From: Escherichia coli O127:H6 str. E2348/69
GTDB taxonomy: Bacteria; Pseudomonadota; Gammaproteobacteria; Enterobacterales; Enterobacteriaceae
DNA: 64,000 bases
Assembly (NCBI RefSeq): GCF_000026545.1
Contig: NC_011601.1
Reading direction: 5' to 3' (one strand)
The notes under the pieces were generated by a model. The model ran no database searches. It was not told the origin of the DNA and was given only the letters and a program-made list of their open reading frames with translations. The translations under genes and the position numbers were made by a program. Of the stretch, positions 29,630-29,971 are shown piece by piece. Positions within the stretch are counted from its first letter, which is position 1, and each line of letters starts with the position of its first letter.

Positions 29630-29971
29630 TTAGTGGGAGGTTCTGATTGCTGCTTTCAAGGCCGGAAGCCGGGACGGACTGGCACTGAGCTTATCAATCC
29701 CCATGGTGAGCAGTCGTGCTGTTTGCTGGGTATCTCCAGCCATTTCGCCGCACATACTGACCGGAATTTCATTATTACGTCCGGCCTGACACACCATAGC
29801 AATAGCGTTAATCACCGCGTCATTACGATAATCGACCAGTTCCGCGACGGTGCTATTTCCTCTGTCTGCCGCCATAATATATTGCGTCAGATCGTTGGTG
29901 CCGATGGAAAAGAAATCGACTTCACTGGCTAATTTTTCTGCAATCATGACTGCAGCAGGAACCTCAATCAT
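29630..29971 (-). pseudogene. C-terminal fragment of a PEP-utilising (PTS enzyme I-like) gene
   Basis: 113-aa ORF MIEVPAAVMIAEKLASEVDFFSIGTNDLTQYIM... covers only the tail of the PEP-utilising enzyme C-terminal domain; no room for the rest before hypT. Confidence 0.5.

Follow-up and report, generated by a model that had tools for sequence, protein, structure and literature searches.

Between iraD (yjiD) and hypT (yjiE) of the enteropathogenic Escherichia coli (EPEC) O127:H6 strain E2348/69, which we take to belong to phylogroup B2, there is a short open reading frame (ORF) whose product resembles the end of a phosphoenolpyruvate (PEP)-utilising enzyme. The window, that is the whole 64-kb stretch of DNA that was analysed, takes its annotation from positions 4200264-4264263 of the E2348/69 sequence NZ_CP059840.2, with whose reverse complement it agrees with 0 mismatches. 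In it a B2-type allele of iraD occupies 29199..29582 on the plus strand (RefSeq annotation) and hypT occupies 30008..30919 on the minus strand, with its TGA stop at 30008-30010. The ORF (342 bp, 113 codons and a stop) runs along 29630..29971, also on the minus strand. A preliminary description, made from the sequence alone, had placed it between these two genes, as its position between the end of iraD at 29582 and the hypT stop confirms, and had read it as an orphaned piece of an enzyme of the phosphotransferase system (PTS), left behind by an earlier insertion or deletion.

The fragment and its parent gene

Profile comparisons bear out the assignment to the C-terminus of a PEP-utilising enzyme. 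The product of the 113-codon ORF, which includes FFSIGTNDLTQY and MCGEMAGD, matches PF02896 (PEP-utilizers_C) with an E-value of 1.6e-40 (139.6 bits), and does so only at positions 180-290 of 293. TIGR01417 (PTS Enzyme I) is matched at positions 428-537 of 565 with 133.3 bits, so far under the full-protein cut-off of 341.7 that the ORF must be regarded as a fragment, and NF008382 is matched with 112.6 bits against a cut-off of 824 bits. The NCBIfam matches as a whole (PTS Enzyme I, PtsP, PEP synthase and pyruvate phosphate dikinase) each involve the C-terminal ~110 positions, and every one of them falls under its curated cut-off. The alignment to an Enzyme I paralogue that the preliminary description had proposed pairs the ORF with residues 425-540 of E. 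coli Enzyme I structures (2HWG and others; E ~1e-27). The residues at Enzyme I positions 431, 454, 455, 465 and 502, which presumably have catalytic roles, are retained, the TNDL and MCGE motifs aligning with residues 454-455 and 502. The match to PEP-utilising enzymes is real, and chance similarity is excluded. What is kept is the C-terminal third of the PEP-binding domain rather than a complete (beta-alpha)8 domain, and the phospho-histidine mobile domain and the N-terminal HPr-binding domain are both missing. With ~20% of the length of Enzyme I, the fragment is a paralogue, not an orthologue, of PtsI.

The homology reaches beyond the ORF, as the parent reading frame continues for 10 codons 5' of its ATG, up to 30001. 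The remnant proper therefore occupies 29630..30001 on the minus strand and consists of the last 123 codons plus stop of pptE (also ptnI), a 793-aa EIIA-HPr-Enzyme I gene; the length of ~113 codons given in the preliminary description holds for the ORF, whose ATG is a Met codon from within pptE, and not for the extent of the remnant. RefSeq treats this whole extent as a pseudogene ('putative PEP-binding protein; incomplete; missing N-terminus'). At the DNA level the 371 bp of pptE together with the 47-bp spacer that follows them (418 bp) are identical to the corresponding DNA of strains CM2, G749 and UTI89 at 100%, 99.5% and 99.3% of positions, and the ORF matches the pptE ends of all three codon for codon. 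Since CM2 has exactly this sequence at the end of a full-length pptE, the ORF is not a complete small gene with a different function. A protein search with the 123-aa fragment returned short or truncated matches only, without full-length PptE among them, and has no bearing on its relatives.

In UTI89 pptE spans 2,382 bp and encodes a protein of 793 aa (WP_000225797.1, RefSeq name ptsP) with EIIA-man, HPr, PEP-utilisers_N (269-381), mobile His (408-479) and PEP-utilizers_C domains, of which the remnant keeps residues ~671-793; the other parent domains are lost. The parent gene lies directly downstream of dhaK-dhaL, and its product starts with EIIA-man followed by HPr and an Enzyme I-like part, an arrangement reminiscent of DhaM-type proteins. 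In the DhaM of E. coli K-12, however, the Enzyme I part is present in truncated form only, whereas the parent PptE has a complete PEP-binding domain. No such architecture survives in the window. Since the product of the remnant would comprise only about the last third of the TIM barrel, without phospho-histidine, HPr or EIIA domains, it could not act as a phosphotransferase.

Homeier et al. (2010; PMC2878320) place pptE as the first gene of the GimA locus (GimA1 operon). In strains such as UTI89 this locus of ~20 kb lies between iraD and hypT. In UTI89 pptE is accompanied by dhaL, dhaK and genes for a glycerol dehydrogenase, an MFS transporter, a flavin adenine dinucleotide (FAD) oxidoreductase, a BCCT transporter and glycerate kinase; the locus continues with 2-hydroxy-3-oxopropionate reductase (glxR), hyi, gcl, dhaR/ibeR, ibeA and nhaC/ibeT, after which hypT follows. 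GimA is organised in G749 and CM2 as in UTI89. The pptE genes of UTI89 and G749 have diverged at synonymous sites by 0.12 over their 5' 2 kb but by only 0.02 over the last 123 codons, a contrast which suggests that there are recombination breakpoints inside pptE.

The junction between pptE and hypT

Comparison of the same interval in other strains, as had also been proposed, distinguishes three states of the locus: GimA+ (UTI89, G749, CM2), remnant (E2348/69, F11, JNE112863, G12, DA61218) and GimA- (K-12, which is without GimA DNA and in which iraD and hypT overlap by 8 bp). On the left side, window positions 29000-30000 are collinear with positions 115-1115 of the UTI89 locus (L003) at 99.0% identity, from iraD into the 3' end of pptE; the iraD segment by itself is 98.4% identical to UTI89 and ~80.5% identical to K-12. 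On the right side, 29990-30400 align with L003 20989-21399, at the 3' end of hypT. The two alignments are offset by 19,884 bp, and this offset supports the view that an earlier rearrangement produced the fragment and specifies it as the deletion of GimA. Insertion of a partial gene is ruled out by the collinearity of the left side with the intact locus. What E2348/69 lacks relative to UTI89 is the rest of pptE, dhaL/dhaK, the glycerol dehydrogenase gene, gcl-hyi-glxR-glycerate kinase, dhaR, ibeA and ibeT/nhaC, and the 19.9-kb UTI89 segment has no BLAST match anywhere in the 64-kb window.

Three-way alignments place the deletion junction in an 8-bp microhomology, TTCTGCAG, at 29993..30000. GimA+ strains have two copies of TTCTGCAG, one inside pptE and one where GimA ends on the right; the second takes the form TTTTGCAG in G749. 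A junction within a repeat common to both breakpoints is what illegitimate, microhomology-mediated recombination or slippage typically leaves behind, and from this sequence configuration we infer that GimA was removed by microhomology-mediated deletion or replication slippage at the 8-bp repeat. An assembly artefact is ruled out, as the junction is found in 265 complete genomes.

Immediately beside the junction, at 30001..30019, there is a 19-bp patch, AAAACTTTCAGCCAGGTTC, which differs at 7 of its 19 positions from the sequence AATAATGTCAGCTAAGCAC found at this site in all of the GimA+ (3/3) and GimA- (2/2) strains compared. The patch spans the hypT stop and the last three codons, and it changes the end of HypT to ...LEIEPG from the ...LEIVLS seen elsewhere. 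A search for its template in the 46-kb locus of UTI89 and the whole window, on both strands and with a tolerance of up to 5 mismatches, found nothing with fewer than 5. We also considered the EPG ending as the ancestral one and rejected this, as HypT orthologues labelled Salmonella, Citrobacter, Pluralibacter, Serratia, Hafnia and Edwardsiella end otherwise; the endings in other genera include ...HAVP, ...QAAL and ...HAAP.

The remnant thus begins 7 bp past the hypT stop, on the same strand and in the same frame, with the TGA and two codons between, and the translation across the junction reads ...ELEIEPG, stop, KFSAENLPALGIMIEV... Deletion and patch together have placed 125 in-frame codons behind the hypT TGA. 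The 113-aa ORF was placed in the HypT 90% cluster of the protein collection, which hints at a HypT-PptE' fusion among its members; a search with a chimeric query among the cluster representatives found no such fusion.

At its other end the remnant stops 10 bp before a hairpin in the 47-bp spacer (29583..29629) between the convergent iraD and pptE stops, a spacer that is collinear with that of GimA+ strains. The hairpin has a 12-bp perfect stem, with its core at 29592-29620 and a predicted stability of -22.4 kcal/mol (z = -5.7; as good in 0/200 shuffles). A simple terminator scan called no site at this hairpin because it is without a clean T-run. It probably terminates transcription from both sides, as a legacy of the intact locus. 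Judging from this arrangement, hypT would have been given a new 3' tail of ~400 nt ending in a strong hairpin, and the remnant is probably transcribed as the 3' tail of the hypT mRNA, up to that hairpin.

Taken together, these features make it very probable that the fragment is a non-functional 'GimA remnant' left by the deletion of GimA. The ancestor would have carried the ~20-kb locus between convergent iraD and hypT, and a single deletion of ~19.9 kb, with one end near pptE codon 670 and the other at the right margin of GimA, would have fused the two TTCTGCAG copies. It would have left behind the iraD-pptE spacer with its hairpin and the last 123 pptE codons, in which an internal Met happens to mimic the start of a 113-codon gene, and this DNA would since have persisted, most likely as neutral sequence.

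The feature is already known, both as a published GimA remnant and as a RefSeq pseudogene, and the present finding is a correct rediscovery of it. Homeier, Semmler, Wieler and Ewers (2010; PLoS One 5:e10877; PMC2878320) distinguish a GimA+ pattern of ~20.3 kb, a 342-bp pptE remnant and a GimA- pattern. They describe the remnant ORF as running from an internal pptE ATG to the original stop in the yjiD-yjiE interval, report it from CFT073, 536 and F11, and find it nearly confined to phylogroup B2 plus ST117 and enriched in uropathogenic E. coli (UPEC). The remnant was cited again by Mediati et al. (2018; PMC6206680), and a 2020 review lists GimA as 'PAI-iraD'. The element in E2348/69 has the same position between iraD and hypT, the same 342-bp ORF, the same start and stop logic and the same three-state polymorphism, and does not differ from the published remnant in any essential respect. 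E2348/69, an EPEC strain that the 2010 paper does not name, is one more carrier. Relative to the passages of that paper on the remnant, the 371-bp plus 47-bp homology, the 8-bp microhomology junction and the 19-bp patch that alters HypT are added here.

Distribution, decay and fate of the remnant

The survey of locus states covered 5,426 complete E. coli genomes, of which 511 contain the 428 bp that separate iraD from hypT; in about half of these 511 the sequence lies under a full-length gene (RefSeq ptsP). A probe across the junction gives full coverage in 265 genomes (~4.9%), and a probe from the deleted part of pptE and dhaL, indicative of GimA, is found in 246 (~4.5%). These 265 remnant genomes and 246 genomes with upstream pptE add up to the 511, and the remaining ~90% have neither. 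One of the 246 is strain LR-28, in which pptE has been cut to 1,014 bp beside an IS1 element, dhaL is lost and dhaK is shortened (L019 3096-4863); this is an independent route of GimA decay. The patch, sought with a 40-bp probe, is present in 264 complete genomes and, among the matches listed, in remnant loci only. In a scan for the patch-side sequence across species, each represented by a single genome, the sole match was Escherichia sp. E1V33, which NCBI taxonomy places under 'unclassified Escherichia'. This strain has an identical junction and patch (L013 4558-5702), in a region 93.6% identical to the window over 6.6 kb. The presence of junction and patch in a separate Escherichia lineage implies that the remnant allele is old, has crossed lineage boundaries, or both.

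Several lines of evidence bear on whether the remnant is still under selection. Pairwise ratios of non-synonymous to synonymous substitution (dN/dS) between the remnants, or between them and CM2, are ~0.6-1.5, values based on small counts and indicative only; the stretch of pptE missing from E2348/69 gives a ratio of 0.12 between UTI89 and G749. The differences seen in remnants are mostly non-synonymous (V18I, E22D, L38M, which lies inside the TNDLTQY motif, E54K, R59C, T91I and T121A). Overtly decayed alleles also occur: a frameshifted 104-aa variant in a hypT-remnant-iraD context is found in 79 blocks of the collection, a 106-aa variant is without SEVDFFS, and the E1V33 remnant is frameshifted by a 1-bp insertion after 29926. 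There is only a weak GGGA 3 nt upstream of the ATG, and promoter-like sites are not significantly in excess over shuffled sequence (4 found against 2.0 +/- 1.4 expected). The dN/dS values, the decayed alleles, the lost domains and the chance-level promoter signals all fit a decaying, neutral relic.

Some observations weigh against this simple account of deletion and decay. The ORF is intact in 5/5 remnant genomes inspected, and its exact 113-aa sequence is found on 449 contigs, where the sources name it PptE. At 1-2% divergence, though, a stretch of 372 bp is not expected to be disrupted by chance. A transcription-factor site is predicted upstream by Homeier et al. (2010; PMC2878320), who leave expression open. 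A simple microhomology deletion leaves the 19-bp patch beside the junction unexplained. Finally, the E2348/69 remnant is identical to the sequence of the GimA+ strain CM2 over 418 bp, yet 5-8 sites removed from four other remnants, and a strict single origin therefore needs later recombination. To judge from these sequences, remnant and GimA+ alleles are in a mosaic relationship.

It is conceivable that the remnant DNA has been recruited to serve hypT as a terminator and 3' untranslated region (3'UTR), or to give rise to a small RNA derived from the 3' end, and has been kept for such a role. The remnant follows hypT after 7 bp on the same strand and ends in a strong hairpin, whereas in K-12 hypT and iraD overlap and leave no such spacer. 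Moreover, in E1V33 the iraD-remnant stretch (94-99% identity per 100 bp) is better conserved than its flanks (85-95%), a pattern behind which introgression may lie. However, the same hairpin serves iraD and pptE in GimA+ strains, which makes it an inherited structure and not one evolved for hypT, and ~90% of E. coli genomes dispense with the remnant. We consider an RNA role unlikely.

A second possibility is that the remnant arose several times independently, with the 8-bp repeat acting as a deletion hotspot. The identity between E2348/69 and CM2 just mentioned would be in keeping with this, as would the segregation of some of the variant sites of remnants in GimA+ strains and the precedent of independent decay in LR-28 through IS1-associated truncation of pptE. 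The junction-spanning probe, on the other hand, is matched in all 265 junction-bearing genomes, and the idiosyncratic patch, which is shared by 264 genomes and occurs in no listed GimA+ or GimA- locus, is unlikely to have recurred in identical form. The occurrence of junction and patch in E1V33 can be accommodated by an old allele spread by recombination. We consider independent origins unlikely as well.

A related proposal, which we think very doubtful, is exaptation of the new hypT 3' end in the strains with this allele, ~5% of E. coli. What was exapted could be the altered C-terminus of HypT (VLS to EPG), a product of read-through or reinitiation, or an RNA derived from the 3'UTR. If true, this could explain the persistence of one old allele both in B2 and in a separate Escherichia species.

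Least credible of all is an expressed small protein with a new function acquired after the deletion, along the lines of the 'change of function' that Homeier et al. (2010; PMC2878320) raise for uropathogenic strains: the ORF does have an ATG and a stop, is intact in the genomes sampled, keeps the residues aligned with the five Enzyme I positions, lies 37 nt past the hypT stop where reinitiation is conceivable, and belongs to a remnant associated with UPEC in that survey, but its product would be about one third of a (beta-alpha)8 barrel with none of the His, HPr and EIIA domains, its dN/dS is near 1, frameshift and motif-deletion alleles are fairly common in nature, and neither the GGGA before the ATG nor the promoter-like sites offer more than a weak or chance-level signal.

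As the trace of a GimA deletion, the remnant marks the former site of GimA/ibeA, a virulence-associated metabolic cluster of B2 E. coli, and the GimA+, remnant and GimA- states form a three-state marker that is used in discussing the reductive evolution of extraintestinal pathogens. Recognising it averts the annotation of the 113-codon ORF as a small PTS protein; otherwise it matters little. The junction, the patch, the genome counts, the decayed alleles and the E1V33 allele help with the history of the locus and open no new question.

Other relics in the window

The left flank of the remnant locus is itself variable. Between uxuR and iraD (28786-29198) the window is without yjiC and the small ORFs ytiC/ytiD/idlP, which are present in K-12, 14EC007, CM2 and LR-28; CM2 combines a K-12-like upstream region with GimA, which makes the left flank a mosaic. 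Further upstream, in the fimH-uxuA interval, 108 bp of gntP survive as a relic at 24516-24623 (RefSeq: GntT/GntP/DsdX permease, missing N-terminus), and at the same fimH-uxuA position in CM2 gntP is intact.

Truncated genes also accompany the defence systems encoded in the window. A sialate O-acetylesterase gene that follows nanM is truncated, and a gene for an HNH endonuclease has become a pseudogene through an internal stop (11652-11996 and 10580-11230); they adjoin a defence cluster with a restriction enzyme for phosphorothioated DNA, McrBC-like genes and a type I restriction-modification system. Two more relics lie in the 'immigration control' region: next to an Rpn-family nuclease gene, the gene of a GntR-family regulator is truncated and has an internal stop (40973-41287), and a 210-bp fragment of a type I restriction endonuclease (hsdR-like; 42223-42432) lies beside symE.
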